A program made the translations under genes and the position numbers. Under the pieces are notes generated by a model, which searched no databases, was not told the origin of the DNA, and saw nothing but the letters and a program-made list of their open reading frames with translations. This document shows, one piece after another, positions 9,442 to 27,440 of a stretch of DNA of 45,139 nucleotides (its first letter is position 1; each line of letters starts with the position of its first letter). Location: IMG/VR virus record IMGVR_UViG_2713897161_000005, one strand, 5' to 3'. The DNA comes from a virus (taxonomy: Duplodnaviria; Heunggongvirae; Uroviricota; Caudoviricetes).

Positions 9442-9450
9442 CTACTCTCC

Positions 9451-9481: not shown

Positions 9482-9491
9482 AGTGAATTGG

Positions 9492-9710
9492 CTAGTTATC
9501 AAAAAGTCCGTACGTTTCTTCTTCAGGAGTAAGGGGAAGAATCTCAATTCTATCTATAGATACCTTTTCAATGTACCCATGAGGTCTACTTAAAATTAAA
9601 GCTCTCTCATGCCACAGAACTCCAAGAATGTGATACCTTCCAGCATCGCCTTTTACCCTGGCTCTTCCTTTGATTCTTGGCGGCATAATGCCATATTTTT
9701 TCTTTGCCAT
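9492..9710 (-). CDS. Hypothetical protein (72 aa, basic N-terminus)
   Basis: ORF MAKKKYGIMPPRIKGRARVKG...; last gene of the island operon before the terminator. Confidence 0.4.
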   Translation of the reverse strand: MAKKKYGIMPPRIKGRARVKGDAGRYHILGVLWHERALILSRPHGYIEKVSIDRIEILPLTPEEETYGLFDN

Positions 9711-10438: not shown

Positions 10439-10475
10439 TAGGCATTCCTTATGTGGTAGTAAGGGTGTGACATAG

Positions 10476-10504
10476 GCCGCCAGCAGCACACTGGCGGTTT
10501 TTTT
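10476..10504 (+). terminator. GC-rich hairpin plus T7 tract, part of a three-segment alternative-pairing element
   Basis: GCCGCCAG(10476-83)/CTGGCGGT(10491-98) then TTTTTTT (10498-10504); a third copy ACCGCCAG at 10506-13 can pair alternatively. Lies between the two antirepressor-like genes. Confidence 0.4.
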
Positions 10505-10521
10505 CACCGCCAGATGCGTCA

Positions 10522-11445
10522 TTAATACAGATGAACAGAAGGCGGCAATTCTTTATTCTTAAGCCTTATCCATGCGGAAAGATTTGTTGGTCCGTCTGGC
10601 TCATTGATATCAACATCTCGTGTGTGGTTGATTAAAACGTCTCTCGCCGTTCCGATAACATACGAGAACTCATGACCGTAGTCGTAGCATCTGCCGGAAT
10701 AGTTCGATTGAATTTGTTTTAGCGCCGGATACAGTTCGCGGAATAATGCCTGTGAGCGGTTGGCATAATCCCATAGCCATACAAGGCTGTTTGCTTCTTT
10801 TGCAGAAAGCTCGTTGACTTTCCTCTCTTGTTTGCCGATGAACTCTCCTTCAAGCGGAACGCGAGCAGCAAGTGACAGTGCTTCGGTAAACTGCTCCTCA
10901 CTGATTTCTTTGTACGAACATCCAAAATGGGATTTCAGTGACGACCACATGGTGATCATCGCCTTAGCCTGTTTTTCTTTTGGCAGAGACTGACCGCGAC
11001 TCATGACGAGTTGTTTAATGGCTTCCTGCTGTTCAGTGGTAATTTTACCCGGCAACGCCTTTTTAGCTTTGCGTGGATTAACCACATGGCCTTTAGTCCA
11101 GTATTCGTAGAGCACATCGTCACACTCTTCCTGATACTGGATTACCTTGTCGCGGATTTCAGGGCGGACTTTGTTTGGTTGAATACTTGAAAGCCAAGCC
11201 GCAAATTTACGAAAGGCAAGACATGTCATTAACTGTTTACCGCCAGCAGAAGGTATTTCGATTTCCGAAATACCTTTGGCAAACCTTTGTTTTAACTTAA
11301 CAAATTGAGCAGCCCAAACCAGCCCCATGCCTTCAACAACAGGCCTCATAGGAACATAAGGCTCATTGTTAATTCCAACCAAAAACAGATTTGTTCCGTG
11401 GAATGGTACATTGATAGTAGATACCGCTGTTGCTATACTTTTCAT
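10522..11445 (-). CDS. Antirepressor (Ant-like), 307 aa
   Basis: Large ORF directly downstream of an Arc-like gene, as ant follows arc in P22 immI; N-terminal region looks antirepressor-like (from memory). Confidence 0.55.
   Translation of the reverse strand: MKSIATAVSTINVPFHGTNLFLVGINNEPYVPMRPVVEGMGLVWAAQFVKLKQRFAKGISEIEIPSAGGKQLMTCLAFRKFAAWLSSIQPNKVRPEIRDKVIQYQEECDDVLYEYWTKGHVVNPRKAKKALPGKITTEQQEAIKQLVMSRGQSLPKEKQAKAMITMWSSLKSHFGCSYKEISEEQFTEALSLAARVPLEGEFIGKQERKVNELSAKEANSLVWLWDYANRSQALFRELYPALKQIQSNYSGRCYDYGHEFSYVIGTARDVLINHTRDVDINEPDGPTNLSAWIRLKNKELPPSVHLY
11411..11439 (+). promoter_or_regulatory. Near-consensus sigma70 promoter antisense to ant (Psar-like)
   Basis: TTGATA (11411-16), 17-bp spacer, TATACT (11434-39); lies inside the first codons of ant on the opposite strand. 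Confidence 0.5.
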
Positions 11446-11518
11446 GTCAATATTTCCCGATCAGATTTGTTGATATAGAAGCCTCGCCAGTTCCCGCTGT
11501 CGGGGCTTCGTTATTTTT
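11446..11518 (+). ncRNA. Candidate sar-like antisense RNA (~70 nt) covering the ant RBS and arc-ant spacer
   Basis: Predicted start ~11446 from the promoter above; ends at a hairpin (11478-11509, GAAGCCUCG/CGGGGCUUC) followed by GUUAUUUUU. Same layout as P22 sar. Confidence 0.45.
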
Positions 11519-11678
11519 AGAGAGCATTCCGCATTTTCTCCCGGTACTTCAACCACCAAGCAAGTCCCTGAACCAACACTGAGTTTTCTGACATCCCCTC
11601 TTCCTTGGCGATGCGTTTCACCTCCTCCTTAAAACGGTACGGATACCGAAGAGTTGTCTTCACTTCATTCTTTTCCAT
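11517..11678 (-). CDS. arc: Arc-like ribbon-helix-helix repressor (53 aa)
   Basis: Uncalled small ORF with AAGGAG 7 nt upstream of ATG: MEKNEVKTTLRYPYRFKEEVKRIAKEEGMSENSVLVQGL...; matches the Arc pattern LRWPREV...ENGRSVNSEI. Confidence 0.55.
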   Translation of the reverse strand: MEKNEVKTTLRYPYRFKEEVKRIAKEEGMSENSVLVQGLAWWLKYREKMRNAL

Positions 11679-11700
11679 TGATCACTCCTTTTTACGTAAT

Positions 11701-11761
11701 GGCATTATGCCTTGAAAGCAATATGCCATCATTGAATATAAATAGCAATATGCCATCATTG
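11701..11761. promoter_or_regulatory. Divergent promoter/operator region between arc and mnt
   Basis: Two perfect 17-bp direct repeats GCAATATGCCATCATTG (11718-34, 11745-61); palindrome GGCATtATGCC (11701-11); TTGAAA(11712-17)...TATAAA candidate promoter toward mnt. Confidence 0.45.
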
Positions 11762-11780
11762 TTTTTTTTGAGGTGATGTT

Positions 11781-12101
11781 ATGGCTGAAAAACAGGTTAA
11801 AGATTACGAAAAGTTTGTTGTGCGTTTCCCTGACGGGATGAGGGACGCGATTGCGGAGAGAGCCAAACGAAACGGGCGCTCTATGAACTCAGAGATTGTG
11901 CAGATACTGGAAGATGCCTTGAATGCAGAAAATACTCTTGGGGAAATAGCAGACAAAATCAACAGCGTCTCGGTTCCGCTAAATGTTGATGCGCTAGTTC
12001 AACTTCAAGCCCAAGTGATCGCCATGCAAAAAGAAATACAGGAAAAATTCAGAGAGCAGAACGAAAAGTTGAGAGAACTGCTAAACAAAAAACCCACCTG
12101 A
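11781..12101 (+). CDS. mnt: Mnt-like ribbon-helix-helix repressor (106 aa)
   Basis: N-terminus FVVRFPDGMRDAIAERAKRNGRSMNSEIVQILEDAL matches the Mnt/Arc RHH pattern; GAGGTGA RBS; divergent from arc. Confidence 0.6.
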   Translation: MAEKQVKDYEKFVVRFPDGMRDAIAERAKRNGRSMNSEIVQILEDALNAENTLGEIADKINSVSVPLNVDALVQLQAQVIAMQKEIQEKFREQNEKLRELLNKKPT

Positions 12102-12112
12102 CGGTGGGTTTT
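12089..12112. terminator. Bidirectional intrinsic terminator between convergent mnt and the lipoprotein gene
   Basis: 10-bp stem AAAACCCACC/GGTGGGTTTT with 4-nt loop; T-rich on both strands; overlaps the mnt stop codon. Confidence 0.55.
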
Positions 12113-12135
12113 CATTACATATCAATTAATACCTA

Positions 12136-12798
12136 TTATCTTCTGATCGCTTTACGCCAATCCCCGGATAATCTAGATATATCCCAACACGACTGAACAA
12201 CTTCAGTAAAATACTCTCTATCCATTGGCGCGATTCCTGGCCAATCTTTCATTCGATTTACTAACGCATCTTTTGGTATGCCCTTCTTTTGATTCAAGGA
12301 GGTTTGTTCGCAAATCGCCCTTACCGCAGCATCATATTCAGCCTGAGCATAATGATTCACACTAAGAAGCACAGTGTATGCTGTTGAAAGTGAATTCATG
12401 GAAGATGAGAGTTCTTTCTTCCTCCGACACTCTTTATCAGCAAGGCATTTCTCTTCAGCTAGTTTTTTTTCCGCTCTCTTCTTGTTATTGAAGGCGTTAA
12501 TCCCAGAATCATAAGCGTTAGCCCATACATTGTAATAACACTCTCCATCCCAGCCGCATTGCGTGGTATCTGGAGCGACAAGAATCATCCCTGTTTTTTT
12601 TAGATAATCATTTTTAAGCCTATTAACAGTCCATGACTCTCCGCTTTTTGCTACATACTCTTTATCACCGAATTCGCTTTGCTGTTGCTGAGTGGTTGGT
12701 GGGGTTATCGAACACCCGTACAATAAAGAAGCAGAAAGAATCAAGAGAAAGTGTGATTTTATTTTTCTTACACATTCACCACGATTAATTAATGCCAT
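12136..12798 (-). CDS. Putative lipoprotein / secreted Cys-rich protein (220 aa), accessory gene
   Basis: Signal-peptide-like N-terminus with lipobox-like LLYGC; AGGAG RBS; AT-rich by eye; sits beside mnt where P22 carries sieA. Confidence 0.5.
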   Translation of the reverse strand: MALINRGECVRKIKSHFLLILSASLLYGCSITPPTTQQQQSEFGDKEYVAKSGESWTVNRLKNDYLKKTGMILVAPDTTQCGWDGECYYNVWANAYDSGINAFNNKKRAEKKLAEEKCLADKECRRKKELSSSMNSLSTAYTVLLSVNHYAQAEYDAAVRAICEQTSLNQKKGIPKDALVNRMKDWPGIAPMDREYFTEVVQSCWDISRLSGDWRKAIRR

Positions 12799-12996
12799 AC
12801 GGCGACTCCTGTCAATTTAGCATGATATACAACGGATTACCTTTGAGTTGTTCATCATATTAACGAACACAATAACTTCAGGTAAACACCTAATCCTCCC
12901 TCATCATCATGCATGAAGAAAAAACACGTATTTATCATACATGTAGCATTAATGACTGTTACCTCCAATTGGTTGGCAAAAATCATCACTGACAGG

Positions 12997-13245
12997 CTAT
13001 GATTTGAATAAGTGCTCATGCCGTGCTGATAGCTCTACTAGCAACTTCATCGCTTCTACCGCGTCTGCCGAGGTTGATTTAGGTGACGCAGCAATGGACC
13101 TGAGTGTGCTCTCTAAACTACACAGGGATAGAGAATATGCCAAATTTAGCTTTATCACGGCGGCTAAGTCTGTTTCATCATGGTTTACGAGTTTGTCTGC
13201 TTCTTCTGGGGTATACCCACTCGCAACCAATCGTGCGTGCATCAT
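12997..13245 (-). CDS. Hypothetical protein (82 aa)
   Basis: Minus-strand ORF preferred over the overlapping plus-strand ORF 13004-13255 because of composition and local gene polarity. Confidence 0.3.
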   Translation of the reverse strand: MMHARLVASGYTPEEADKLVNHDETDLAAVIKLNLAYSLSLCSLESTLRSIAASPKSTSADAVEAMKLLVELSARHEHLFKS

Positions 13246-13329
13246 CTCTTTGTAAGAGTGTTCAATTGCTTTTATGATAATAACCTATTGGTAATAATTC
13301 CAGGATTAAAAAACTCTTGATAGTAGTAA

Positions 13330-13569
13330 TTAATTTCCATCAAGAGCAGCAAGCAGCGAAGTGCGCAACTTTTCTTGAGTCATTTTCAACTCTCCGCTCT
13401 TTGCTTGCCTGCGAAGATCATCGACCACCATTTTGGTGAATTCTGTAGGGGTAATCTCACTCTCGATAGAGACCTCTCTCCCAAGAAGCAATGATATCCC
13501 ACCCAAAATCAGGCTAAAGGCATTACCAATATTTTTTAACGATGGAGTGTAAACGATGGAAAGTTTCAT
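13330..13569 (-). CDS. Hypothetical protein (79 aa) immediately downstream of the tape measure gene
   Basis: ORF with a hydrophobic central segment; weak RBS. Confidence 0.3.
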   Translation of the reverse strand: MKLSIVYTPSLKNIGNAFSLILGGISLLLGREVSIESEITPTEFTKMVVDDLRRQAKSGELKMTQEKLRTSLLAALDGN

Positions 13570-13624
13570 TTTTACCGTCCGACTTCAGTTAACGGATACA
13601 AGCACAGGAAACGTTACAAGGTGA

Positions 13625-15439
13625 CTAAGGCATTGCACTAGAAAATGCCGCGTTTGTTGACACCCGGCTAACTTGCTGATTGACACTTCTGGTAAGAGCA
13701 TCAACTGTTGTCGGGTTACTGTTAACAACAACCGTGCCAATAGTTGTACTGCTGCTACGACTGTTGTCAATTTTTGATGTTGTCTGGCTTGGTGTTGAAG
13801 CGATGCGTTGCTGCTGCTGATAGTAAGCCAGCGTCTCGTTTTCTTTTGCATTAAGAGCGGCGCGAATCTTTGGCACATATTCTCGCGTCTCTTTCGGTAA
13901 GGTGTTCCAGTATTTGGATGATGGTGAATCAAACCCGGTACTGGATATGTATTTTAACTTTTTGTCTACATTGCCCATCCCCCAGTTGTAAGCCATCAGC
14001 GCATGGTTAACATTGCCTTTATAGTGCTTTAGCAAATCCCTCATGAACCTTTCAGCAGCAGCGCGAGATTTTACCTCATCAAGACGCTCATCAATCCCAT
14101 CACCGACCTTTAACCCGTACGCTATGGCAGTATCCTTCATGAACTGATACGGACCAACAGCACCTTTCGGGCTGTAAAGTTTTTTACCACCACTCGATTC
14201 CACCTCACGAATGGCATCAAGAAGAGAATCCATGCTTACAGGCTTTACTCCGTCAGGGAGAGGGATATCTGGCTGAATGTTATTGCCATAAATCTCATCT
14301 CCCCTACGCCCAAAATCGGTGTCAAACCCCATGCTGCGCATGGTATCTCCAAGTTCACGCTTAGAGTAATCAAACGATCCTTTAGCTGCACCCTCAATGT
14401 TTTCCCTGTCATTGTAGAGGTACAAACCATATGCTATTAACCCAGCCAACCATGGAGGAAGGGCACCGCCTGTAAGTTTGCTTCCTACATATGCTGCTGC
14501 CAATAGCTTCAGAGCCTCTTCCGCGCCACCAACTGCCTTTGTGAATTGCTTCGTCATATTCCCGGCGTCATTGAAAAAGCCAATGATGTCGCCATGATGT
14601 TTCTCAATCCAGGAACCAAAAGCCTTCATCCCGTCAATAACGTCTGGAGCGAATGCCATGGCTAAATTTTGCTTTAATCGGGAAAACTCTGAATCAAGTT
14701 GACCAAGAGTGGCGGCAACCTTCTCCTGCTCTTTTACCTGCTGTGCGCTAATACGGGATTTCTTTGTTTCTGAATCGACAAGCTGCTTAAGTTCCCCTGA
14801 TTTTATTTTAGCGGCATCTGTCGGATCGAACCCTGCGGCCGCCATCACCTGCATCAGGTTTTCTTGAGAATGAGTCTTGCCATAGCGAGAAAACTCAGCA
14901 AGAGCCTTGTTTGGGTCACCGAGCTTATTGATATCTAATCCGGTACGAGCGCCAAGAACCAGCAAATTTTGGGCAGCGCCAGTAAGCCCCCCCATAACAG
15001 TTGGATCGGCAATATTTGCCAAAGCCATTCTGGCATTCCCAGAAGATGAAATGAACGAGTCACCGTTAAGACCAGCCTGGCGAAATCCCCGCTGAACACC
15101 AAACATCTTATTAACATCAGAACCGAAAAACTTGGCCTGTTGACTGGCTCTCACGATTTCGTTGGCAGTAGATGTAAAAAGTTGCTTGATTCCATACAAC
15201 CCGGCGCCAATTCCCAAAAATCCAGCGGCTGCGGTTGTCACGTTGCGGAAAGCTGAAACAGCGGTTTTACCGAACCTCTCCGTTTCCTGCCGCTGTTTTT
15301 CAAGTTCCTTTAGCCTTTCCTTCTCAGCCCTGGAAAGATCTTTGTTTAATTTACTAACTTCATCTTTTACTTTCCGTTTTCCATTCAGGAATTCATCGGC
15401 CTTAATTGTGACCTTGTAGGCCAACTCATTGATAATCAT
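13625..15439 (-). CDS. Tail tape measure protein with lytic transglycosylase-like region
   Basis: 604 aa, N-terminal coiled-coil-like region; C-proximal EVESSGGKK...GPYQFMKDTA...AYNWGMG resembles SLT catalytic motifs (ES...AYNxG). Confidence 0.7.
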   Translation of the reverse strand: MIINELAYKVTIKADEFLNGKRKVKDEVSKLNKDLSRAEKERLKELEKQRQETERFGKTAVSAFRNVTTAAAGFLGIGAGLYGIKQLFTSTANEIVRASQQAKFFGSDVNKMFGVQRGFRQAGLNGDSFISSSGNARMALANIADPTVMGGLTGAAQNLLVLGARTGLDINKLGDPNKALAEFSRYGKTHSQENLMQVMAAAGFDPTDAAKIKSGELKQLVDSETKKSRISAQQVKEQEKVAATLGQLDSEFSRLKQNLAMAFAPDVIDGMKAFGSWIEKHHGDIIGFFNDAGNMTKQFTKAVGGAEEALKLLAAAYVGSKLTGGALPPWLAGLIAYGLYLYNDRENIEGAAKGSFDYSKRELGDTMRSMGFDTDFGRRGDEIYGNNIQPDIPLPDGVKPVSMDSLLDAIREVESSGGKKLYSPKGAVGPYQFMKDTAIAYGLKVGDGIDERLDEVKSRAAAERFMRDLLKHYKGNVNHALMAYNWGMGNVDKKLKYISSTGFDSPSSKYWNTLPKETREYVPKIRAALNAKENETLAYYQQQQRIASTPSQTTSKIDNSRSSSTTIGTVVVNSNPTTVDALTRSVNQQVSRVSTNAAFSSAMP

Positions 15440-15654
15440 CGCTGCTCCTGATGTTTATTCCAGACCCGCTTGTTAAATGATTCCACCGAGATAATTTCCA
15501 GAAGGTTATACATATCACGAACAGATAACCGTTCCTGTAAATCGGTATAAGTGGCTTTTCCTGAACAGATAATGGCGTTCATTGATGGTGTGACGTTTAC
15601 GGGGTTAACGAGTTTTGCCGGAAGAGTCTCCTCCTCCATGAACGGGTACTTCAC
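15436..15654 (-). CDS. Tail assembly chaperone, frameshift-extension ORF (T-like part)
   Basis: 72-aa ORF in the -1 frame relative to the upstream 135-aa ORF; lacks a good independent ATG (track start is GTG at 15654). Confidence 0.45.
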   Translation of the reverse strand: MKYPFMEEETLPAKLVNPVNVTPSMNAIICSGKATYTDLQERLSVRDMYNLLEIISVESFNKRVWNKHQEQR

Positions 15655-16058
15655 TCTCCGGCGATCGTTAAAAAATCAAAATTGACTTTAAATACCTTAT
15701 CCATTACCTGACGAATGGTTGATACCTCTTCAAAGTCGACAGGCTTCACGGTTCGCACCTGTCTGCTGCCTTCGTGTGTAATCACAATTTGCACAGTTGA
15801 CATCAGGCGATCACGCAGTTTTCTGGCAACTTCCGGCGATGCGGCAGAAAGAACATTCAGACCAAGGGTGGCAAGGCCAGCACACCCCATGGCAATCACA
15901 TCAGCAGGAATACCAGAGAATCCCGATTCCCCCATGGAGCGGAATAAATCCTGTGCCAGTTCGTCGGCATCCCATGCCGACATCTCTGTGATAATGAACT
16001 CTTTCCCATTGTCGCGATTATCGTCTTCCACGATAAAGGGGATTTCTTTACGTGCCAT
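15651..16058 (-). CDS. Tail assembly chaperone (G-like, 135 aa)
   Basis: Position between the tail tube and tape measure genes, with the frameshift partner downstream. Confidence 0.5.
   Translation of the reverse strand: MARKEIPFIVEDDNRDNGKEFIITEMSAWDADELAQDLFRSMGESGFSGIPADVIAMGCAGLATLGLNVLSAASPEVARKLRDRLMSTVQIVITHEGSRQVRTVKPVDFEEVSTIRQVMDKVFKVNFDFLTIAGE
15669..15675 (-). promoter_or_regulatory. Candidate -1 ribosomal frameshift slippery heptamer U_UUU_UUA
   Basis: Minus-strand GAT TTT TTA gives X_XXY_YYZ = T_TTT_TTA in the zero frame, 5 codons before the 135-aa ORF stop; the -1 frame continues into the 72-aa ORF. Confidence 0.5.
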
Positions 16059-16492
16059 CAGATAGTGCTCCGTGTTACAGACTCAAAGTGAAATACTGCC
16101 GGGCGTGGTTGCAGTACGCGCCGACCCGGAGGGGTTGGAGTCCATGTATAAAGAACCCCGTTCACAAAATTCCACTTCGCGCCGAGAGCTGGAACTGTAA
16201 GCACCGCATTACACTGAAACGCTGAAATTGCAGTTCTCTCCGCTGCATACCAGTCATCAATCAGCGAGCCAGCATTGGATGTGGGCATCAGGTTGATGGT
16301 GAACTCTGTCGGGTTAAAGATAAAACCAGCATGGTATTTACCGTCCGCTGACATCATGTCTTCTTTGTTCTGTAACGCACCAGTTTCAAACATGTTATCA
16401 GCTGCGTAGTCGTCAACATCAAAACCGCCAGGGTAGTAAGCGGGTACAACGATTCGCAGCTTACTGTTTGCCGAGGTAATATCGATAGGCAT
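16058..16492 (-). CDS. Tail tube protein (putative)
   Basis: 144-aa ORF directly downstream of the sheath gene in the conserved sheath-tube order. Confidence 0.5.
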   Translation of the reverse strand: MPIDITSANSKLRIVVPAYYPGGFDVDDYAADNMFETGALQNKEDMMSADGKYHAGFIFNPTEFTINLMPTSNAGSLIDDWYAAERTAISAFQCNAVLTVPALGAKWNFVNGVLYTWTPTPPGRRVLQPRPAVFHFESVTRSTI

Positions 16493-16503
16493 GATTTATT
16501 CCC

Positions 16504-17994
16504 TTATAAAATCGCGGTTGAGGACATTGTGATGGACTGAATAAGTTGCCCATCGACATAATAGAAAATGACACCTTTCAGGTCGCGCTCAATGCGTGCA
16601 GAGCCTGACTGTGTCGGGATGTACAGGAACCAGCCCTGTGAATACAGCGTCGATGAGATATCTTTTCCAACTGTGTTATTCACAATTCTGGTTTGCGCAT
16701 TATCAAGTTTCACGCCACGCTGAATAGCCCCGAAATTGAGAGCCTGTTCAGCAACATCAATAACAGCAGCAGAAACTGCGCCGTATCCTGTCTCATTGAA
16801 CGGGTAAGACTGGTTATTGGTGAACAGGTTAGCAAAAGCACTAACCAGATTGGCATTAATCCATACCTGATTAATAAAACTGTCCAGCCATACAAACTTG
16901 CCAGTAATGGCACCATCAGATGCGTACTGCGCCATTGTTTTGTTCAGGCTGTATGAGCCGTAGAAGTTGTAACCGTTTGATTTCAGTGCCTGAGCGGTCG
17001 CCAGATCGCTTACGTTGGGTGCTAACCCTGAAAATCCACGGAACTTGAACGAGATACGCCCATTGGTGCGTGCAAAATCCACGGATGCAGCATATGCCAG
17101 TGCTGTAACGCTATACAGGTATGTTCCGTACACCGGAAAAATGTTCTCGTAGCCATTTGCCACAACCACTTTCTGCACAAAGCAATTTGCATTATTGGCT
17201 ACCGTTCCTGCTGAAGTGGTATCGTGAACAACATATCCAAACCGGTTTTTACTGCTGCTTGCCCATGCGCACAATTCTGTTTTCTGGTCATCGGTCAGTT
17301 CGACCAGCGAGTTAAACAGGATCCAGTTCTGGTTGACGTTGATGATGTTGTTCATCGTGTCTGTCAGCGTTACCGCATCATAACCCGGTGATACAATCGC
17401 TGCGGAATCCTGCGTAAGTAACAACCCGGTAGCCAGAGCGCCAGCAGAGGCATAAGACACTTCACTCTCTGCGCCAGTAGTGGCAGAGCGAATGATGAAT
17501 CGGTTAGCTATTGGCAACCATTCAACCACCACCTTGCTTGCACCAATTCCAACCTGCAACTTGGACGCAATGTCGCTAAAACTTGTGGCTGTGGACAAAT
17601 CAATTGATGTGCTGGTAGTCGACTCACCGTCAATGGAAAGGGTGATTGTTCCTGCTGGAATCGCTTTCAGTGTTGCCAGGGTAACACCTTTCAGGTTGCC
17701 GGACAGAAGATACCCAGCCACTGGTGAAGTAACAATACGATACATCAGCAGTTCACCAGGAATAACGGATGAGTTTTCGTATCCGTTAAAATACTGTTGT
17801 GCTGCGAGGAATTCTTTCGATTCACTCCCCATCAAAGCTGATACATCAGATGAGGAGTAATAAGATTGTACCGCGCCAACCGGGATAAGCTCGTTATCGG
17901 TCAACATCAGGCCGTTAGCATCAACCGCAGAACCGGCAGGCGTAACGACATTGGGCGTGATATTAAAATCTACAGATAAAGGGATTGTGCTCAT
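16504..17994 (-). CDS. Tail sheath protein (putative)
   Basis: 496-aa ORF; size and position typical of contractile tail sheath. Confidence 0.6.
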   Translation of the reverse strand: MSTIPLSVDFNITPNVVTPAGSAVDANGLMLTDNELIPVGAVQSYYSSSDVSALMGSESKEFLAAQQYFNGYENSSVIPGELLMYRIVTSPVAGYLLSGNLKGVTLATLKAIPAGTITLSIDGESTTSTSIDLSTATSFSDIASKLQVGIGASKVVVEWLPIANRFIIRSATTGAESEVSYASAGALATGLLLTQDSAAIVSPGYDAVTLTDTMNNIINVNQNWILFNSLVELTDDQKTELCAWASSSKNRFGYVVHDTTSAGTVANNANCFVQKVVVANGYENIFPVYGTYLYSVTALAYAASVDFARTNGRISFKFRGFSGLAPNVSDLATAQALKSNGYNFYGSYSLNKTMAQYASDGAITGKFVWLDSFINQVWINANLVSAFANLFTNNQSYPFNETGYGAVSAAVIDVAEQALNFGAIQRGVKLDNAQTRIVNNTVGKDISSTLYSQGWFLYIPTQSGSARIERDLKGVIFYYVDGQLIQSITMSSTAIL

Positions 17995-18018
17995 GACAAT
18001 ATTTATACCTTTGATAAA

Positions 18019-18027
18019 TGATATAAT
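18019..18027 (+). promoter_or_regulatory. Extended -10 promoter element (TGaTATAAT) for the HNH gene
   Basis: TGATATAAT at 18019-18027, about 24 nt upstream of ATG 18051, with AGGAGG RBS at 18040-45. Confidence 0.4.
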
Positions 18028-18050
18028 ACCTCAGCATCCAGGAGGTTATC

Positions 18051-18533
18051 ATGTGTAAATTCAATGATTTATTTGCGTATTGCAAACGAACCGGTGTTTT
18101 GACATACAAGAAAAAATGCGGAATAAAAATGCCAGGGCAAATTGCTGGGTCTGTCAACAAAAATAACTACATAAATCTTGGCATTGAAAAGAAAAGATAC
18201 TATGCCCACAGGATAATATGGGAAATGCATAATGGAACCATTCCTGATGGCTATCAGGTAGACCACATAAATGGCATAAGGTCTGATAATCGAATCGAGA
18301 ATCTCAGAATAGTGAAAAACAGCGAGAACTCGAAGAACCAGAAGCGAAAATCTACCAACAAATCTGGTATGACTGGCGTTTCATGGGATACGCAAACCCA
18401 GAGATGGAGAGCGCATATAACTGTTAATGGAAAGATGATATCTCTTGGAAGATATATACATAAGCTTGATGCATTAACAGCCAGAAAAAATGCCGAGATT
18501 AAATACAATTTTCACGAAAATCACGGGCGTTAA
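18051..18533 (+). CDS. HNH endonuclease with AP2-like DNA-binding region (homing-endonuclease type)
   Basis: HNH motif YYAHRIIWEMHNGTIPDGYQVDHINGIRSDNRIENLRIV; AP2-like GVSWDTQTQRWRAHITVNGKMISLGRY. Opposite strand to the flanking structural genes; AT-rich by eye. Confidence 0.75.
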   Translation: MCKFNDLFAYCKRTGVLTYKKKCGIKMPGQIAGSVNKNNYINLGIEKKRYYAHRIIWEMHNGTIPDGYQVDHINGIRSDNRIENLRIVKNSENSKNQKRKSTNKSGMTGVSWDTQTQRWRAHITVNGKMISLGRYIHKLDALTARKNAEIKYNFHENHGR

Positions 18534-19048
18534 TCGACGTTAACATCAACGATCTCTGTAGATACCTCTGCCTTATCAAAATAATCTTGCTGCATGCTCA
18601 CGGTTATGTGTGCCTGCATCGACAATGTCAGCACCCATCTTTCCTGCCACTGACTCTCGGCGTTGATCATCGGCGCCTGAATGGCAGGAGATGAGTAAAG
18701 CGGCGCAAGCCGTGCATCAATAGCCTTGATGATGTCGTAGCCATATCCACTGGTGAATGTTGTTTCCAGTGCAATAGCTCTATCCCCTGCCCCCTGACCA
18801 TAGATATCTACCTGAATATCAGCCTGGCGAACTTCCGTATATCCCATGGTGCTTGTGTCCGGAGAGCCGGTATCTTGCTTAAGCTCTCTCGTCGTGGATA
18901 GTCTGGTGAATCGCAAAGGGGTCAGGATACAGAACTGATCTTTGGGCATTGGTACACGGTTAGCCTGAGCCTGCAGGCATTTACCAGCGATAGGTTCTAT
19001 GTAGCCAGCAAGTACATCGATAATATTATCAACAGTGAAATCATTCAT
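18530..19048 (-). CDS. Phage neck/tail-completion protein (putative)
   Basis: Start set at ATG 19048 (MNDFTVDN...), which overlaps the upstream gene's stop; the track start at 19081 overlaps further. Confidence 0.4.
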   Translation of the reverse strand: MNDFTVDNIIDVLAGYIEPIAGKCLQAQANRVPMPKDQFCILTPLRFTRLSTTRELKQDTGSPDTSTMGYTEVRQADIQVDIYGQGAGDRAIALETTFTSGYGYDIIKAIDARLAPLYSSPAIQAPMINAESQWQERWVLTLSMQAHITVSMQQDYFDKAEVSTEIVDVNVD

Positions 19049-19422
19049 GGGCTTACCTGCAATACAGCAATCAGCCGGCACCAGTCAGGCCACAACTCTA
19101 TTGGCTCAACAACAAGCCATTGCTCCCCGTTAATCACGAAGATATCTCCGCCCTGCTCTAGTTCTCGCTGAACACTGAAGTAATTACCATTGACGTAAAT
19201 CACTTTTGCCAGCCCCTGAATATTCAGTCCATCGACGTGTTGCATGTCGCCGCGACTGATTGGCTGTAGTTGAATGGTAACGTGCTGGTCAGGGAGATAA
19301 GACGGAATCGGCTTGCGACCGGGGCCGATAGTTTCACCTGCATACTTTTTCAGGATTGCTGGGATGTTGGGGTTAATGCTTGTGATCGCGTTATTGGCTA
19401 TCTGTCGAAGATTCAATTTCAC
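19045..19422 (-). CDS. Phage structural protein (125 aa)
   Basis: ORF in the head-tail joining block. Confidence 0.4.
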   Translation of the reverse strand: MKLNLRQIANNAITSINPNIPAILKKYAGETIGPGRKPIPSYLPDQHVTIQLQPISRGDMQHVDGLNIQGLAKVIYVNGNYFSVQRELEQGGDIFVINGEQWLVVEPIELWPDWCRLIAVLQVSP

Positions 19423-19957
19423 CTACCTCATAATCAACAGCCCTTAACATGTCCCCGGTCCATATGAGAGGCTTGTTGTTGCTCATATCAACATCAACCT
19501 TTTTCACCGGACCGAAATAGCCCGGACCACCAAAAACATCTTCTCTGGCCTTCACTACATCCCACTTAGTCATTTCCGCCCTGTTATTAGGGAATCTACT
19601 TCTTAGAAGTACTGTTACCGGGCTTAATGGCGGCTCTTGAATAGTTCGAATGGATTCCTGAATGTCTGCTTTTATGATCTCGCCGATAAGATTCAGAACA
19701 GTATCCGCATCTCCGTCATGCGATTTCATGAGCTTTTCGACCTTTTCTGACCACTCTTCAGATTTAGAAGCTATAGCATTCCTGAAGAATGGCCTTGGCG
19801 GACTTCCACTTGCCGGGTTACCAAATTCGTTAGATGCTGCAACCATTGGCATAGAAGTACCATCCGGATAGGTGGCATCTTCAAGAAACCCGACCTTCAA
19901 TTGCTTTGAGAACAACTCACTACCAACTGAATCAAGGAACTCCATCACCTTATCCAT
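19391..19957 (-). CDS. Virion morphogenesis protein (putative)
   Basis: 188-aa ORF in the head-tail joining block. Confidence 0.4.
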   Translation of the reverse strand: MDKVMEFLDSVGSELFSKQLKVGFLEDATYPDGTSMPMVAASNEFGNPASGSPPRPFFRNAIASKSEEWSEKVEKLMKSHDGDADTVLNLIGEIIKADIQESIRTIQEPPLSPVTVLLRSRFPNNRAEMTKWDVVKAREDVFGGPGYFGPVKKVDVDMSNNKPLIWTGDMLRAVDYEVGEIESSTDSQ

Positions 19958-20388
19958 CAGTACCTCCGGTAATACCCATACGGGTAATTTGATGGAGAAT
20001 GCCCGCTTATATACTGGAAGGTGCGAAACGGCGCCGTAGCATTCCAGTAATCAGCCCCGTACTTTGTTTGCATGTACCATGCTGAATTTGCTGTTCCCCC
20101 TGGCATATCGGCATGAACGCTAACCGAACCCTCTGAAGCACTGTCGATTCTTCCAACCAATCCGGATGGAGACTGCCCATTTGCTCCTGAATACAAACAG
20201 GCGATATGGGCAACCAGCATATTCAGCAGCATTGAGCGTACAGCTAAATCCGACACACGACTTGAGTCTGTGTTATCGAGATAAATGGTTGCTTGCGTGA
20301 AATACTGCTGAAGAAGTACGTCGTCGACAGATGAGAATTCAGGATAGCGTAGCTTAAATGCGGAGGGGGCAAATATTACGACGCCCAT
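19957..20388 (-). CDS. Head-tail connector/adaptor protein (putative)
   Basis: 143-aa ORF downstream of the capsid genes. Confidence 0.4.
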
Positions 20389-20400
20389 TTGCTGCTCCCG

Positions 20401-20748
20401 CTATTTTTCGTCAGCCTTTTTTACGCCCGGAGCCGGATTTTCCGGGTCAAGGCCTTCAAGGCCAGTTTTTGATTCTTTCAGATCTTTACCCTGCGCATTC
20501 AGACTGCGAATATCTTTCTGAATGAAGATTGCATTGTTCTGAATATACGCGGCATCCTTATAGGTCTCGATGAACTTATCCATGAAGTCTTTCTCGACCA
20601 TGGTAACTCCGAAAGCCCCCTCAGGAATTGCACCATCAAGACCACGGAGGGCGGTTGTTGCCGCCCCGTTCAGGATTACTGTTTTGCCATCCAGAGTTAC
20701 CTGAAGGCCATTTGGCAATTTGCAGCCAACGCTTACCATTTCTGCCAT
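20401..20748 (-). CDS. Phage structural protein (115 aa)
   Basis: ORF immediately downstream of the major capsid gene. Confidence 0.4.
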   Translation of the reverse strand: MAEMVSVGCKLPNGLQVTLDGKTVILNGAATTALRGLDGAIPEGAFGVTMVEKDFMDKFIETYKDAAYIQNNAIFIQKDIRSLNAQGKDLKESKTGLEGLDPENPAPGVKKADEK

Positions 20749-20751
20749 GAA

Positions 20752-21792
20752 TTAAACTCCCAACATGCTTGCAAATGCCAGCGGCTGGCGAATGATTGCG
20801 CCCCAGGTGCCACCGGTTTTCTTTTGTTTGTACGCGGACAGGTCAACAACAACTGGATGCGCACGCATTTTTTCGGTAAATGCGCAGTAGCCGGTGTCCT
20901 GACCATCCAAATCGTCGGCGATCAGCTGAACCAGTTCGCCGGATTCGGTTTTGTACTCGACAGCAGTAACAACGCGCAGGTTCGGGAAGTTTTTCTTCAA
21001 CTGATCAGACACGTTGACGTTGTACATGTTGGTCTTGGTCAGATTTGCTTCTGACTCTGGAGACATCGCCAGCGTCATCTTGCTGTCTCGCTCAACGTAC
21101 CCCTTGGTCTGCTTCACTAACTGCATGTAAAGCGCCTGGATATCGTCATACACCGCCTGACCGTCTTTTGTTGCCCAGGTGGTTCCGCCGCTCGCACCAG
21201 TTGCACCCGGGGTGATTGATGCCGGAAGGTTAGGGTCATTCAGAATGCCGTAGTTCTTCAGGCCAGCAACGCCGAAGAAGTAGGACTTGTTCTGAAACTT
21301 ATTCAGGGTCAGCGCAGAAGCAGTATTCAGTTGTTGAGCCCATGCAATGCGGCCTTCACCGTAACGGTCAAGTTCCAGCTCACCCCACTGAGTAATGGTC
21401 TGGTACAGATAGGACTCACGAGCAACCCAGTTGACGTTAGCATTTACCTGCCCATTATTGTTGTAGTCACCATAACTGGAAACCTGACCCGTTGATTCCA
21501 CAACCGGGAATTGTGCGGTCATGGTGGTCCAGTCTCCCTTCTTCGTTTCCCCCAGAATTTCCACCGCTTTCATCGGAGTGACAAGGATGCGAATCAGTTC
21601 CGGGTCAACGTAATTAGTGAAGTACCATGGAATGCCAGAGTTGCTGGTTGTTACCAGTGAAGGCTGAGAGTCCATTGCATAGGAATAGCTATTAGCAACA
21701 GCATCCGTCAGATAGGCTTTGGCTTCCGGAAGGATTACACCGTAATCTCGCTCAGCCATAGCTTTATGTTGTAAAAATTCTGCGTTATTCAT
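20752..21792 (-). CDS. Major capsid protein (putative)
   Basis: 346-aa ORF in the canonical position after the protease/scaffold and a small head protein. Confidence 0.6.
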
Positions 21793-21795
21793 GTA

Positions 21796-22275
21796 TTAGC
21801 TCCAGGTGCCCATCTGAATCAATTCGCCAGCCTCGCCAGCACTGCCAACAACAAATTTTGTTTCAACGTAATCCGAGATTGACGCCCCGGCATCGCCAGC
21901 GGTAATGGTTCCATCTGACAGTTTGGCGAAAATCTTCTGCCCTACGGTTGCCGCACCGGCAGTTTTCACCCAGTAGTCGCCAGCAGTCATCAATGTCATC
22001 TGAACTCCAGGCTGAATAGTCATAGATGATTCACCAAGCCATGTGGTGACAGACGCCTGCCCTTCCCGATGAACGAAACCGGCAGGAGCACCGGTTCCAG
22101 TGTTATTGACAACACCATTGCTTACCCATGCAAAGCGACCAACAACAACCCCATTTGCACCGGCAACAAGAGCGCCCTCACCTGCAAGAAGACTTGCTTT
22201 AGGGTTAGCCGAAGCGAAATCCCCTTCAACTCCCGGCGCCTGTTGCTGATTAATTACACTTTGAAAGCCACTCAT
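21796..22275 (-). CDS. Head decoration/structural protein (putative)
   Basis: 159 aa, Gly/Ala/Val-rich; sits between the scaffold and capsid genes. Confidence 0.4.
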   Translation of the reverse strand: MSGFQSVINQQQAPGVEGDFASANPKASLLAGEGALVAGANGVVVGRFAWVSNGVVNNTGTGAPAGFVHREGQASVTTWLGESSMTIQPGVQMTLMTAGDYWVKTAGAATVGQKIFAKLSDGTITAGDAGASISDYVETKFVVGSAGEAGELIQMGTWS

Positions 22276-22278
22276 TTC

Positions 22279-23505
22279 TTAGCTCCGTTTCAGTTTAGTT
22301 GCGCCAGGAAATGCCTTGGCGAAAGAATTGGTTGCAGCAGAATCCATCCCCATACCATGAGATGGTTTGCGAACTACCGCTTTCTGGCTGATAGCAAATT
22401 CAACCATCGATTTAAGTGCTGAAGGATGAACGCCTTTATGTTCGGCACCGATTGAATCAAGAGCAAAGCGATAAATAGACTCTGCGGAATCCATAGCGAC
22501 CAGACTCACATCACCAACCAAAGCACGAACACATTCTCGAGCCTCATTGGCTTGACGGATACGCCCCATCACATTCTCTTCAGCTTTTCGAATCAATGCG
22601 GCATCCATAGCTGCTTTATTCTCATCATCGTCTTCATCCTCGGCAGTCTTTTTATCCTTGCCGTCATCATCTTCGTCTTCCGCTTCTTTGCGGTCACGAT
22701 CGCGATCCTTTCGCTCACGTTCTTCACGCTCTTTTAGTTCATCCTCTTCACGTTTCAGACGCTCTGCTTCTGACTCATTATCTCTCTCAGCCTGAGTGGC
22801 TTCGTCTTCAACAACCTTTTGCACTTTCTTTTCCACTTCTTCTGGCTTCTCATCACTTGCCAGCATCGGCGTGATAACTGCCATCAACTTTTTAGTAAGT
22901 TCTGACATTGATTTCATTCCTGTTGGTATTGAATCCCCGACAACAACGTCGGATCCGGCTCTTCCCTCTGTTACGAGAGCAACGTGGTTCCCGACGATAT
23001 CGCGCATTACACCATCGTATGGCTGGCCTTCATGCACGCCGGGGGTCATGTCAGCTACATATCTGTAGGCCGACGAAAGTTCTTTCTTCTCGTCTGTCTC
23101 GATTCCAGCGATAGAATCTGCGTCCCATACGACAAGCGAGTTCTTGAGATAAGTCCCGTCAAACTCAGCATCAGTACCAGTAGAACCAACCACAGCCATC
23201 TTCTGAGGGTCTGCAGCAGTAACCGGAATGTGTTCGTTAAGGAGCGGGATGTTGTTGAATGTAGATGCTGCTTTGGCTAACTCTTTCGGGTCACGAAGCA
23301 GGTAGTAAAACTTGTCAGGCTGTAAACCTAGCGATCTGTAATTAGGGATTTCACGCCCATAATAAGGGCAAACGTTAGCCTTACTGATTGGCGTCACTTC
23401 GATATGCAAACGCCCATCCTTATCAAAGGAGCGCACCGTTGCCTTGTCGAATGCCAATCCGTGATATCCCCATTGCCAGTCGCCTTTAACTTTGCGTAAT
23501 GGCAT
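22279..23505 (-). CDS. Prohead protease/scaffold fusion protein (putative)
   Basis: 408 aa; conserved N-terminal domain followed by a highly acidic, charged low-complexity segment typical of scaffolds. Confidence 0.5.
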
Positions 23506-23639
23506 GCTTTTACCTTTCGGCAGGCAATAAAAAAGCCGCAGTAGCGGCCATTATTTCCTCTTGGACATAGCTATTTTCAGTAGTGCAATCATTAAGCAAC
23601 CAAAAATCAACACTAATCCCAGAGACCATAAAACCTCAA

Positions 23640-24458
23640 TCATTTTCTATCTATCCCAGGGATAACAGGAGACCACGTACAACGGCAGTTGATAGCCTCT
23701 CCCGGCAGCACCCATTCACCATCAAGATACAGCCCTTTATCGAGGTCGAACTCTTTACCGTCAGCTTTCACATGGGATGGCCTTGGCTGCTTCCCGGCGT
23801 GTGAGTGACGCCAGATTCCTTTGGTGATGCCTAACTTCTTCTGCCGTTCAGACTGAATTACCGCTGTAGCTTTGTTGTTCTGATCGCGTGCGATCGTCTC
23901 AGCGCGTCTGCGTGTAATGCCATATCGCTTAACCAGTTCATCAGTGAGATAGCCAAGGTCACGACCACGGCTGACAGACTGCATGACTATCGTCTCAACC
24001 TGTGTGTGATAGTGTTCAGGTATGGATTTAATCAGGTTGACGTTCTCGTTAACGACAGCCTGCATCACGTTCTTAAGCTCGTCATTCATTGTGAACTTAA
24101 CGGTAAATCCGCCAGCCTTTAACGCTGAGTGTAACGAAACGTCGGTGTTGCGCAGTGTCTTATCAACGAAGCGATCAGCCAGTTTCTTAGCCAGTTCATT
24201 GAATTTATGCTCCCACTGCTTGCCTAGTCTGGACAATCTGCGCTTTAACTCATTCGCGGGACTGGAATCCATCGCCATGTTGTTTTTGTATGCGCCCTCA
24301 AGCCAGTATCGGTATGACTTATCCATCTCCCTAACCAGTTTGAGAAGCTCAGAGCGATACCACTCATGAACTCCGGCATTAGCTCTGACTGGACGAAGGG
24401 TTTTCCGGGTCTTCGAATCCTTCTTCGACGGACTCGTTTTCGTGCTCTTCTTCGTCAT
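23640..24458 (-). CDS. Head morphogenesis protein (Mu gpF-like)
   Basis: 272 aa; C-terminal region typical of the Mu F / SPP1 gp7 minor head family (from memory); downstream of portal. Confidence 0.6.
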
Positions 24459-25914
24459 ATTCAGATTCCATCATGTGGTATGGGCTGGCCTTATCCGACT
24501 GGCGCATGCTTCTTATTGCATCAAGGTCGAATACGCCAGCTTCAGCATAGTTCTTGTCAGCCTCAGACTGATGTTTCATGATCTCGGCTTTCTCTGCTTC
24601 TGTAAGCTCGTACAGCGGCAGGAATTCAAAATCAATGTCAGGGTCAATCTCGCCAAATTCATTCAACTGGATAACATCCAGCACTGTTTTCAGCGGCACC
24701 CTGAACAGATTCTCCTGCATGGCGTGTATTGAGTCATAGAAGACGCGGATTTCGCCATCAGATGAAGCGTTTAGCCCGTTAGGAGTGATGCCAAGGAGCT
24801 TAACCAGAGGAATGCTTGATACCGATGCCATTTGTTCCTGCGCTTGCGCCTGAAGAGCATCAACTCCGGACAGACTTGTCACAAACTGGAAGAATTCTTC
24901 TCCATCCTTATCAATAAGGAACATTCCGCGATTGTCGCGAACCTTATTGAATAGCTCGGCACGCATAAACAGGTTTGGGTCTGCAATTCCAGACAAGGCA
25001 TTCTGCATGTTCGTCTTCAGCCCATAGACCACAAACGAATGAACCAGATCGCTAACGCTGTCACGTGTTCTCAACCAGTTCTGCACGTATGGCTCTGCCA
25101 TCTGACTCAGCGACAAGCCGCCGAAGTTGTACGCCGCTTTGAGAATGTCTGGCACCTGGCGAGAAATCATTGTCAACATGCGACTGGCGTGAACCGTGCG
25201 CCCCATGACATACCATTCAGATGGATTGAAGAAGTCAGGGCTTAGAGGATTGTCAGCGTTATACACGCCCGGGTAAGTCCACATAGCCTCGATAACGCGG
25301 AAACCATTCAGGCTTCCTTTGGTAATCTTGCGCGGGCTGATATAGAGCTTCTTATCCAGTTCGTCGGGAACCAGCCAGGCTGAGTTACCGCTTGGCGTCT
25401 TCACGTCGATATAAATCTGCCCGCGCCCGAAGTAACCGTCATGTTCCGCTGCCTCGCGAAACTTCTCTCGCACTCTGAAACGCTTTAATGCTTCGTCAAG
25501 CTGGCGAAGTTTATCGGCCTTGTCGTCACCATCGTCTTTACCTACATGCTTCAGCTCAATCCATTTTCGCGTCATCTCTTCTGCTATCGTGCCAGTAATC
25601 TTGCGATACTCCGGCAACTGAGCAAGTTGAGACAGATATGGGTAGCCAGGAAATCCACCGTAGCCATATGCGGTGATGTTTGCTGAGTTAAGGTAACTGT
25701 ACGGCGTGGAGTCCATCGCCAGAGCTGACTCCCCAATATGTTCAGGAATAACGCCTGGCGGGGGTACGTATCTCTCAATTCTACGCAATGCCTCGCCTTC
25801 ATTTTTAATTCGCTCCTGTTCGCTAATAATCGCAAGAACATTCGCCAGAGACATTGGCTGTTTCGCCTCTTCTTTCTGAGGCTCAGATTTTTTCTTTCTC
25901 AAAAAATTAAACAC
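24379..25914 (-). CDS. Portal protein
   Basis: 511-aa ORF directly downstream of the large terminase; start codon overlaps the TerL stop. Confidence 0.65.
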
Positions 25915-27440
25915 TATGCGAGCCTCAAAAGGTCTTCAGATATACGTAACGGACCATTGCCATTTTTCATCTCATCGATGGCATCCATCATCGGATCAAG
26001 CTGGTCGTCGTGCGTATTGAAATCAGGATTAATAGCTTCCATCTCAACGAGGAAGTCGTTGATGAATGGTGCGCTGCTGGGCAACTTGATGTAACCGGAC
26101 TCGATATAACCCTGTACGTCCATCAGTCGCGTGTACTTATCCTTATCGCGCTGAATTGCTTTGATGGGGCATATCGCTTTTTTACGGATGTTCTGTATCA
26201 GGCCTGTGCCAGATGACTTGTCCTCTATCGCCATGTGGCGAAGCGGCCCATTCTTCAGAGTTTTGCACTTTTCCCAGAATGCAACAGCACGGCGTTGTAA
26301 TTCATCGGCCTCCCATTTACCGCGAATCATATCGATCAGATAGATGTACCCGTCAGTACCAAGCCCCCAGTGCTCGAATACTGAGAAGTCGTTGACCTCT
26401 TTTGTTTTCTGTGCGGTGTCTCCATAGACGGCACGCCATTGCATGGGAGGGAGTACCGAATATTCACCAAACCATTCAGACTTAATAAGCCCCCCGCCTT
26501 TGGCGGTTGGTCGTTGCTGATAAAGAGCATTCCATACAAGGGAACCGCGCTGTTTGCATTTCTCTACGAACTCTCTCGGCATGCGCTCAGGGAACAGAAT
26601 TTCACCGGGATTGCGCAGTCGATATACGTTACCGTTGAGTTCATGGATCTCCTCCTTTTCAGCCTCCATAGGGAAGCTAACTACGCGCCAGCGTTCCCCG
26701 CCTTCTTCTGCCAGTTTTAATAACTGGCCGGCGAGATCGTTTTGATGCCAGCGTGTCAGAATGATGACGATGCCGTTTATCTTCGGGTCAACACGCGTGA
26801 AGAATGTCGTGTCGTACCAGTCCATCACCGCTTCCTGGTAAGTTGGAGACGATGCGGTTTTGTAATCTTTCGCGGGGTCATCAATAACCCCAATGTTCAT
26901 ACCCTGCCCGGTGATACCACCGTTAACACCAGCGGAACGATATGAGCCGCCGTGTAGTTCGCCTTTGGCATCAACTGGTTCCCATAGCTCGGTTTTGTTG
27001 ATACCTCCCGCCAAACTGCGTCCTGAGGGTATTTTCACGTCAGGGAAAACATCAGCGTACTTATCAGATGTGATAATGCGTTTAACGTCACGGCTCATTC
27101 GGTCTGACAGGTCAGAAGAATATGAGCACGAGATAATGTTCCATGATGGATGCTGTCCTAACACATACGCTGGGAAGCGGCGAGAGCACAACTCACTCTT
27201 TCCTGAGCGCGGAGGGGCAAACACCATTAGCCTGGGCATGTTTCCGGCTTTAACTTCATCCAGAAAGTGATCTAGCTCAGCACAAAGCAGCTCGTTAAAC
27301 CAACCTGTTTCGTATTGCGGATTAGTGTACAAAGTGAAATCGAGAAGGTTTTTTCTTGCTGAGCGGATAGCCAGCTCTTTGTGCAACTCATAAATCTGAG
27401 CGTTTCGATTCAAGCTGATTGGAGCGCCTGCCATTACCAA
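25914..27440 (-). CDS. Terminase large subunit
   Basis: 508 aa; Walker A-like FAPPRSGKS near the N-terminus and a nuclease-type C-terminal half; overlaps the small subunit 3' end. Confidence 0.8.

Follow-up and report, generated by a model that had tools for sequence, protein, structure and literature searches.

What is a single gene doing on the opposite strand inside the tail-gene block of an Escherichia coli prophage? The stretch of DNA analysed here at its full length (IMG/VR record IMGVR_UViG_2713897161_000005, 45,139 nucleotides; hereafter, the window) is a temperate prophage of E. coli with an E217-like contractile-tail module, and a long minus-strand late block of ~19.7 kb spans its middle. 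An HNH-AP2 gene lies within this block on the plus strand (18051-18533, ATG start, 160 amino acids (aa)), between the tail sheath gene of the DUF3383/E217_gp31 family on its downstream flank (16504-17994, minus strand; start codon 17992-17994) and the tail (neck) terminator gene on its upstream flank (18530-19048, minus strand, 172 aa; Pfam PF23961 Phage_tail_terminator_9, 8e-22), whose product is labelled 'phage neck terminator protein' by NCBIfam. In the Pseudomonas phage E217, gp31 is the tail sheath (PMC10329688). The stop codon of the HNH gene overlaps that of the convergent terminator gene (18530-18533). Since all other plus-strand open reading frames (ORFs) of at least 100 aa within 12136-31801 are nested inside longer minus-strand ORFs, the HNH gene is the sole real plus-strand gene in ~19.7 kb, and its composition is AT-rich, with a GC content of 0.37-0.40 over 17900-18500 versus 0.45-0.51 in the flanks. 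A first-pass annotation, made from the letters of the window, had described the gene as the only plus-strand one in ~19 kb, as AT-rich and as inserted in opposite orientation between neck and sheath genes, all of which is borne out, and had read it as a mobile homing endonuclease. Judging from the comparison of alleles and from the predicted protein, we consider it likely that this is indeed a free-standing HNH-AP2 homing endonuclease gene (HEG) residing at the terminator-sheath junction.

We compared the locus with related prophages that lack the gene, as the first-pass annotation had recommended, and could thereby define the insertion site exactly and, in addition, recognise a co-converted tract and conflicting histories of the HEG and its flanks. 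A megablast search with positions 16000-20500 against 5,426 complete E. coli genomes found the tail module in 20 chromosomes at 97.5-99% identity, the HNH segment being covered in none of them (0/20), and a sensitive blastn search with the HNH segment alone gave no match in the same 5,426 genomes. Conservation of the gene at the same position in all related tail modules, which the first-pass annotation had said would refute its reading, is thus not seen. In the empty relatives SC406 and Z1323CEC0001, the terminator stop codon overlaps the sheath start codon as ATGA, and the window has 647 bp (17995-18641) where empty alleles have 105 bp, a net insertion of 542 bp. In a wider survey seeded with the terminator protein, the terminator-sheath junction was empty in 9 of the 10 loci from GTDB species representatives of other genera and in 76 of the 77 IMG/VR loci, L108 being among the empty ones. 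In the two exceptions, Pluralibacter L020 and IMG/VR L048, the slot is taken by another HNH_3 gene, of ~40% identity. The identical protein, on the other hand, was encountered on 17 contigs, each time between sheath and terminator and antisense to them. Among cultured phages, no close donor of the HEG was found, the top tblastn identity being ~50%, and a megablast search of the region against the phage collection returned one distant Vibrio phage match and no cultured relative.

The insertion is accompanied by a foreign piece of the neighbouring gene. When aligned with the E. coli empty alleles, the terminator gene of the window has one mismatch in its first 407 nt (99.8% identity), while the last 109 aligned nt (18530-18641) have 41 mismatches and an indel (62% identity; Fisher p = 6.5e-30 for the contrast between tract and body), and the boundary between the two is sharp, at 18641/18642. 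This HEG-linked, apparently co-converted terminator 3' end (18530-18641, minus strand) comprises 112 bp, that is, the last 37 codons and the stop codon. It is 84% identical to that of Salmonella L017 and 81% to that of Edwardsiella L014, both of which are occupied (HEG-bearing) alleles, with the terminator bodies of these two being 80% and 68% identical to that of the window, respectively. Because the affinities of the tract and the body are reversed, the allele of the window is a recombinant, consisting of an E. coli-type backbone, the HNH cassette and a foreign terminator 3' end. At the level of aligned alleles, this comparison shows the HNH gene to have come together with a replaced 112-bp terminator 3' end. 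Co-conversion, as well as cleavage sites distant from the HEG, is established for intronless homing (PMC2988022), and co-conversion in that process produces recombinant alleles such as the one seen here. The terminator gene is not only the neighbour of the HNH gene but probably also the target gene of the enzyme.

Of the 35 C-terminal residues of the terminator protein, 9 are changed by the tract; in phage E217, sheath subunits are recruited by the C-terminal extension of gp29, a terminator-like protein (PMC10329688). Relative to the HEG-less allele of L001 (E. coli SC406), synonymous differences in the tract reach a proportion of 1.0 (Nei-Gojobori; the expectation at saturation is 0.75), computed over only ~33 codons, and this synonymous excess could be due to chance or to selection for recoding. 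A low-GC donor, which the low GC content at third codon positions of the tract had seemed to indicate, was dropped from consideration, as the signal is inconsistent across loci.

Orthologues of the gene in other genera occupy the same position. We identified seven orthologue clusters (64-100% aa identity), all at the terminator-sheath junction and all antisense, including those of Edwardsiella tarda (83%), Salmonella enterica (76%) and Aeromonas hydrophila (64%) and, among the same seven, three at 68% aa identity from sequencing-run assemblies. We judged the congruence of histories by comparing a pairwise identity matrix for the HNH gene with matrices for the two flanking bodies, sheath and terminator. 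By HNH sequence, the nearest relative of the window is Edwardsiella (80% nt identity), whereas in the sheath gene and terminator body Edwardsiella has the lowest identity of the enterobacterial relatives (67-68%), with Salmonella standing closest to the window (79-83%). These matrices show, for the sequences compared, that the relationships of the HEG disagree with those of the flanking genes. A case of exchange is provided by the Salmonella loci L016 and L017, which are ~80% identical across the module and 99.7% identical (2 mismatches in 647 nt) over nt 1-120 of the sheath gene plus the HNH gene (p = 4e-31 for this island of identity). In another pair, L017 and L030, the terminator bodies are 95% identical and the HNH genes 78%, with divergence climbing at terminator nt ~405, as it does in the window, and between L017 and L018 identity gives way to divergence at terminator nt 337-363. 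Taken as sequence evidence, the locus displays the hallmarks of a free-standing HEG, namely, sporadic presence, co-conversion with adjacent breakpoints, and a phylogeny incongruent with that of its surroundings.

On the sheath side, the first 120 nt of the sheath gene (17875-17994, minus strand) are 97-98% identical to those of the HEG-bearing Salmonella prophages, with the rest of the sheath gene at 79-80%, and they are identical in E. coli empty alleles; the inner edge of this segment coincides with the left boundary of the L016/L017 island. It may have been exchanged as a tract on the left-hand side, or its 5' coding sequence may be under constraint. Nucleotides 121-180 of the sheath gene, directly after the conserved segment, are hypervariable.

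The protein appears to be equipped for the proposed activity. The domain search advised by the first-pass annotation, which had claimed an HNH nuclease with an AP2-like DNA-binding region, placed HNH_3 (PF13392) well above its cutoff (3.9e-24; 84.5 bits versus 24.8) at residues 50-94 (nt 18198-18332) and AP2 below its own (3.5e-5; 24.5 bits versus 33.3) at residues 107-135, and PHROG 99 'HNH endonuclease' matched at 4e-63. In two orthologues at 68% identity, P0006 and P0007, there is a match to PF00847. The only sequence relative in the PDB is I-HmuI (1U3E), the similarity being marginal (E = 0.1, 24% identity). In this alignment D71 (codon 18261-18263), H72 (18264-18266), N84 (18300-18302) and N93 (18327-18329) match D74, H75, N87 and N96 of I-HmuI, which we take to be the catalytic Asp/His and the Asn residues of its H-N-N motif. 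Neither these four positions nor N80, R86 and N96 vary among 65 aligned homologues. An absence of catalytic residues, which would have weighed against the first-pass reading, is thus not what the alignments show, and the sequence preserves an intact I-HmuI-like H-N-N active site.

An AlphaFold2 model built on the same 65-sequence alignment (predicted local distance difference test score, pLDDT, 89.9) is in agreement with these assignments. Its first Foldseek match in the PDB is again I-HmuI 1U3E (E = 4.7e-4, 96 columns, root-mean-square deviation (rmsd) 3.5 A), and the modelled structure has the beta-beta-alpha-metal fold of HNH_3 nucleases. The next matches are the plant AP2/ERF domains of AtERF1, TEM1 and WRINKLED1 (WRI1), at 1.3-1.8 A over 50 residues, with AtERF1 superposing on the C-terminal domain of the model at an rmsd of 1.3 A over 50 aa. 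The C-terminal part of the model consists of strands at 110-113, 118-125 and 128-135 and a helix at 138-151. According to the model, then, the C-terminal domain, roughly residues 107-151 (nt 18369-18503), has an AP2/ERF fold of the DNA-binding type, supporting by structure what Pfam scored below threshold. The ratio of nonsynonymous to synonymous substitution rates (dN/dS) between HNH orthologues is 0.07-0.10, compared with 0.05-0.09 for the sheath gene, a sequence signature by which the HNH gene is under purifying selection.

The gene also seems to carry its own expression signals. A 56-nt spacer between the sheath start codon and the HNH ATG (17995-18050, plus strand), not present in empty alleles, holds the putative promoter and ribosome-binding site of the HNH gene: an extended -10 element that is a perfect match, TGATATAAT, at 18019-18027, and a Shine-Dalgarno sequence, AGGAGG, at 18040-18045, 5 nt before the ATG (both on the plus strand). 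Both elements had been pointed out in the first-pass annotation, and both stand. TGATATAAT and the GGAGG core are invariant in the four aligned orthologous loci (E. coli, Edwardsiella, Salmonella and Aeromonas), and we consider this conservation among aligned sequences to be stronger support than the match to the consensus. The spacer of the window is 79-88% identical to those of the orthologous loci, whereas the HNH coding sequence there is just 65-80% identical. A generic promoter and terminator scan showed no enrichment and did not flag the extended -10 site, because it required a -35 hexamer; the same scan found no intrinsic terminator after the HNH gene. On the minus strand, the spacer contains a conserved AAAGG 13 nt before the sheath ATG, which may, from its sequence, replace the sheath Shine-Dalgarno sequence (AGGTGGA) that was lost with the terminator 3' end of the empty allele.

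The homing model that we favour would proceed as follows. The enzyme would be made from its own sigma-70 extended -10 promoter, reading against the late operon; since this promoter opposes an operon that is silent in the lysogen, expression in the lysogen is possible. In relatives devoid of the HEG, it would nick or cut the terminator gene in its final ~110 bp; after resection of the break, homologous recombination would repair it from the HEG-bearing copy with the help of either host RecA or the Rad52-family recombinase and SSB of the prophage. Repair would copy the HEG, plus the sequence between the cut site and the HEG, into the recipient, and the substitutions in the co-converted tract would shield carriers from self-cleavage. 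The insertion would break the terminator-sheath translational coupling (the ATGA overlap), and the 56-nt spacer may give the sheath gene a new ribosome-binding site. While insertion polymorphism, the co-converted tract, incongruent histories and site fidelity support the mobile reading of the first-pass annotation, it is from sequence that we infer cleavage, the target site and expression of the HNH gene. A Rad52-family annealing protein and SSB are encoded at 43455-44678 of the window and could aid break repair during homing.

Where would the enzyme act? We compared 9 occupied alleles (~7 distinct), 2 alleles with the other HNH gene and 87 empty alleles, defining a HEG-linked position as one whose occupied state is found in at most 5% of the empty alleles. 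Such positions are restricted to terminator nt 444-456 (window 18593-18605) and nt 496-497 (18552-18553). The core of these differences, at 18593-18605 (minus strand), lies 63-75 bp from the insertion point, and its 13 bp change from ATCACCGTGTCGTTC in the empty state to ATAACCGTGAGCATG in the occupied state. The codons are ATA ACC GTG AGC ATG in the window versus ATC ACC GTG TCG TTC in the E. coli empty alleles; more generally, occupied alleles have ATA for Ile, AGC for Ser and ATG or TTG, where empty ones have ATC or ATT, TCN and TTC, respectively. Because the switch between AGC and TCN for Ser needs several changes and leaves the protein unaltered, we propose, as our best guess from the sequences, that the recognition or immunity site has its core at 18593-18605. 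Alternatively, the ATGA junction itself might be the target, destroyed by the insertion. Two other sets of markers were rejected. The change from ERY to ERW (Tyr to Trp at terminator residue 138) had looked like a perfect HEG marker, and ERW was found in several empty IMG/VR alleles; the synonymous states GAT, TTT, GAT and AAG likewise occur in empty alleles and are thus not exclusive.

Several points weigh against this account. The target is deduced solely from HEG-linked substitutions, which could be hitch-hiking markers instead of immunity changes, and a small number of distant empty alleles likewise have the ERW and GAT/TTT states. Gain by homing and loss via recombination with an empty allele yield identical patterns, such that the direction is not provable from the alleles. 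Outside the E. coli group, we found no near-identical HEG on a different type of backbone. Although the HEG-bearing E. coli backbones have 73 differing sites in 6.5 kb and none of these falls within 17804-18964, the flanks are nearly invariant among empty alleles too, so this region free of polymorphism is weak evidence, because the flanks evolve slowly there as well. The model assumes a double-strand break, although enzymes of the I-HmuI type nick a single strand. Finally, the 13-nt spacing of the candidate sheath Shine-Dalgarno sequence AAAGG is long.

Among the alternatives, the one that fares best, and which we still regard as improbable, is that a formerly mobile HEG is now a passenger or has been domesticated, having no cleavage activity or serving as an AP2-based regulator, with its distribution explained by ordinary recombination and loss. 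Orthologues down to 64% identity hold the same junction, which could mean long vertical residence; occupancy among relatives is low; and the L016/L017 exchange took place between two occupied alleles, so plain recombination is possible. Against this, all catalytic residues are invariant, and the dN/dS of 0.07-0.10 extends over the whole protein, nuclease domain included, which argues for maintained activity. Moreover, the HEG and its flanks are incongruent, breakpoints recur at the same place, and the E. coli allele joins an E. coli gene body to a foreign tract.

Quite improbable, to our judgement, is that the protein is primarily a competition or defence nuclease, expressed by the lysogen and cutting superinfecting HEG-less relatives, with homing as a by-product. 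The autonomous, conserved extended -10 promoter opposing a late operon that is silent in the lysogen is in keeping with such a role, as is the marker exclusion driven by homing endonucleases that is documented in T-even phages (PMC2988022), and the PADLOC 'HEase' models match weakly (1e-7). However, these are generic homing-endonuclease models, no partner genes accompany the matches, and the present data fit plain homing equally well. In addition, since the target would be a late structural gene of close relatives only, the defensive range would be narrow. An exclusion nuclease is in fact an extension of the homing model and compatible with the data. In this vein, one may speculate, with low expectation, that the HEG, expressed by the resident prophage, acts on incoming HEG-less relatives as an exclusion weapon and a gene drive combined (prophage-to-phage homing), its island bringing along functional cargo in the form of another C-terminal tail for the terminator protein, the part by which E217 gp29 recruits sheath subunits, and the first 40 codons of the sheath gene. 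If this were true, both sides of a structural contact would be shuffled by the HEG between phages from more than one genus.

It is hardly credible that the HNH protein is needed for the phage life cycle as a terminase partner of the HK97 gp74 type (cos cleavage or packaging), since, even though it is an HNH nuclease encoded in the late structural region and the relative L007 has a different HNH_3 gene beside its small terminase gene, the gene of the window lies ~9 kb from the terminase genes (small terminase at 27388-27978, the others upstream), has a promoter of its own and runs antisense to them, is absent both from prophages of 98-99% identity and from nearly all other relatives, and encodes an HNH_3 and AP2 domain unlike the small terminase-partner type; position, orientation and dispensability in relatives led us to reject this candidate.

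The free-standing HEG that we propose can be placed among known systems. HNH-AP2 homing endonucleases, among them those encoded by the IPA-HNH genes of Vibrio phage ICP1, are known from phages, cyanobacteria and ciliates and are credited as the source of the plant AP2/ERF domains (summarised in PMC10448857); HEGs that lie where recombination tracts end have also been described (PMC10448857). Like members of this family, the protein of the window combines an N-terminal HNH domain with a C-terminal AP2 fold, and its gene is free-standing beside essential structural genes at the boundaries of recombination tracts. It differs from ICP1 IPA-HNH, whose domains are too divergent for Pfam HNH_3, in being a canonical HNH_3 protein and in residing in a temperate enterobacterial prophage, antisense and with its own promoter; its nearest homologues in cultured phages are ~50% identical. 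With I-HmuI, the HNH nicking endonuclease of Bacillus phage SPO1, it shares the D-H...N...N constellation and an N-terminal beta-sheet DNA-contact region, but the gene for I-HmuI sits in an intron of the DNA polymerase gene, and its product ends in a helix-turn-helix domain in place of AP2.

A parallel in genomic behaviour is offered by the Mob (HNH) and Seg (GIY-YIG) endonucleases of phage T4, such as MobE, SegG and SegF, which are also free-standing, with intergenic HEGs flanked by conserved genes and a target presumed to lie in the neighbouring gene (PMC2790892, PMC2988022). Flanking-marker co-conversion and the possible replacement of one HEG by another in the same slot are further features in common with intronless homing in T4. 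In contrast, T4 Mob proteins have zinc-finger-type C-terminal regions instead of AP2, the majority of T4 cassettes have no promoter and point the same way as the adjacent genes, their hosts are virulent T-even phages where the host here is a prophage, and in the window co-conversion covers a short tract of 112 bp close to the HEG. With HK97 gp74-like proteins, the common feature is an HNH nuclease among late genes; those genes are conserved, co-oriented, adjoin the terminase and portal genes and are required for packaging, while the gene of the window is dispensable in relatives, distant and antisense.

By itself the gene would be an ordinary selfish element, if an unusually clear case of intronless homing. 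Its value is that, for a temperate phage of enterobacteria, nature here offers a clean example in which the empty and the occupied site, the exact point of insertion, the co-conversion tract of 112 bp and a candidate immunity or target core of ~13 bp are all defined. It yields a testable target prediction for an HNH-AP2 enzyme, and it illustrates how HEGs, in different genera, set the limits of recombination within tail-gene modules. When prophages of this family are annotated, the HNH gene should be kept apart from the structural operon.

The neck-tail module has at least three distinct HNH slots, of which the terminator-sheath junction is one. In the same slot, the unrelated, 40% identical HNH_3 genes of the Pluralibacter metagenome-assembled genome (L020, 3551-4003) and of the IMG/VR locus (L048, 3051-3503) come with a non-homologous spacer; their terminator tracts nevertheless share the HEG-linked markers, suggesting that one HEG took the place of another in an island that already held one. 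An upstream slot, between a collar-like gene and the terminator gene (at ~19048/19050 of the window), holds a different HNH gene, ~50% identical to that of the window and co-oriented with the late genes, in E. coli KCJ3K291 (L002, 3504-4004) and in L033 and L053 (at 2022-2495 in both). A cluster of mismatches between L002 and the window at 19051-19089 suggests a second co-conversion tract there. The third slot, between the sheath gene and the tube gene, is occupied by HNH_3 genes in L020 (5558-6031), L032 (947-1441) and L048 (5058-5501), and also in L070, L083 and L109 (~4520-5000). We found no second HNH gene within the window, in which the tube protein gene, of the E217-gp32 type, lies at 16058-16492 (minus strand).

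Beyond the tail module, the window begins with a formate/nitrite-transporter gene (1-933), which adjoins the integration site of the prophage, followed by the integrase gene (1209-2402). The plus-strand gene nearest to the HNH gene encodes an Arc-like protein (11781-12101, plus strand), and other genes of the window encode a CI-like repressor, the replication protein O, a primase-helicase, NinB, the Q antiterminator, and the Rad52-family recombinase and SSB noted above. Some relatives have peculiarities of their own. The HEG-bearing relative L007 (region 8894-12384) is without the capsid/decoration block, with portal fragments directly after the head-tail genes, and its additional gene beside the small terminase gene, of the HNH_3/zf-His_Me_endon type, has no counterpart in the window. 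The record titled Chryseobacterium sp. 18061 (L022) contains an enterobacterial-type tail module (terminator 80% and sheath 82% aa identity to the window) and is probably a contamination or a mislabelled assembly. Lastly, a 188-aa gene at 19391-19957 is a mosaic hot spot, as seen when 19421-19940 of the window is compared with L003: in prophages of the Z1323CEC0001 type, it is swapped for a strongly diverged allele, 117 bp shorter, with the neighbouring genes remaining ~99% identical.

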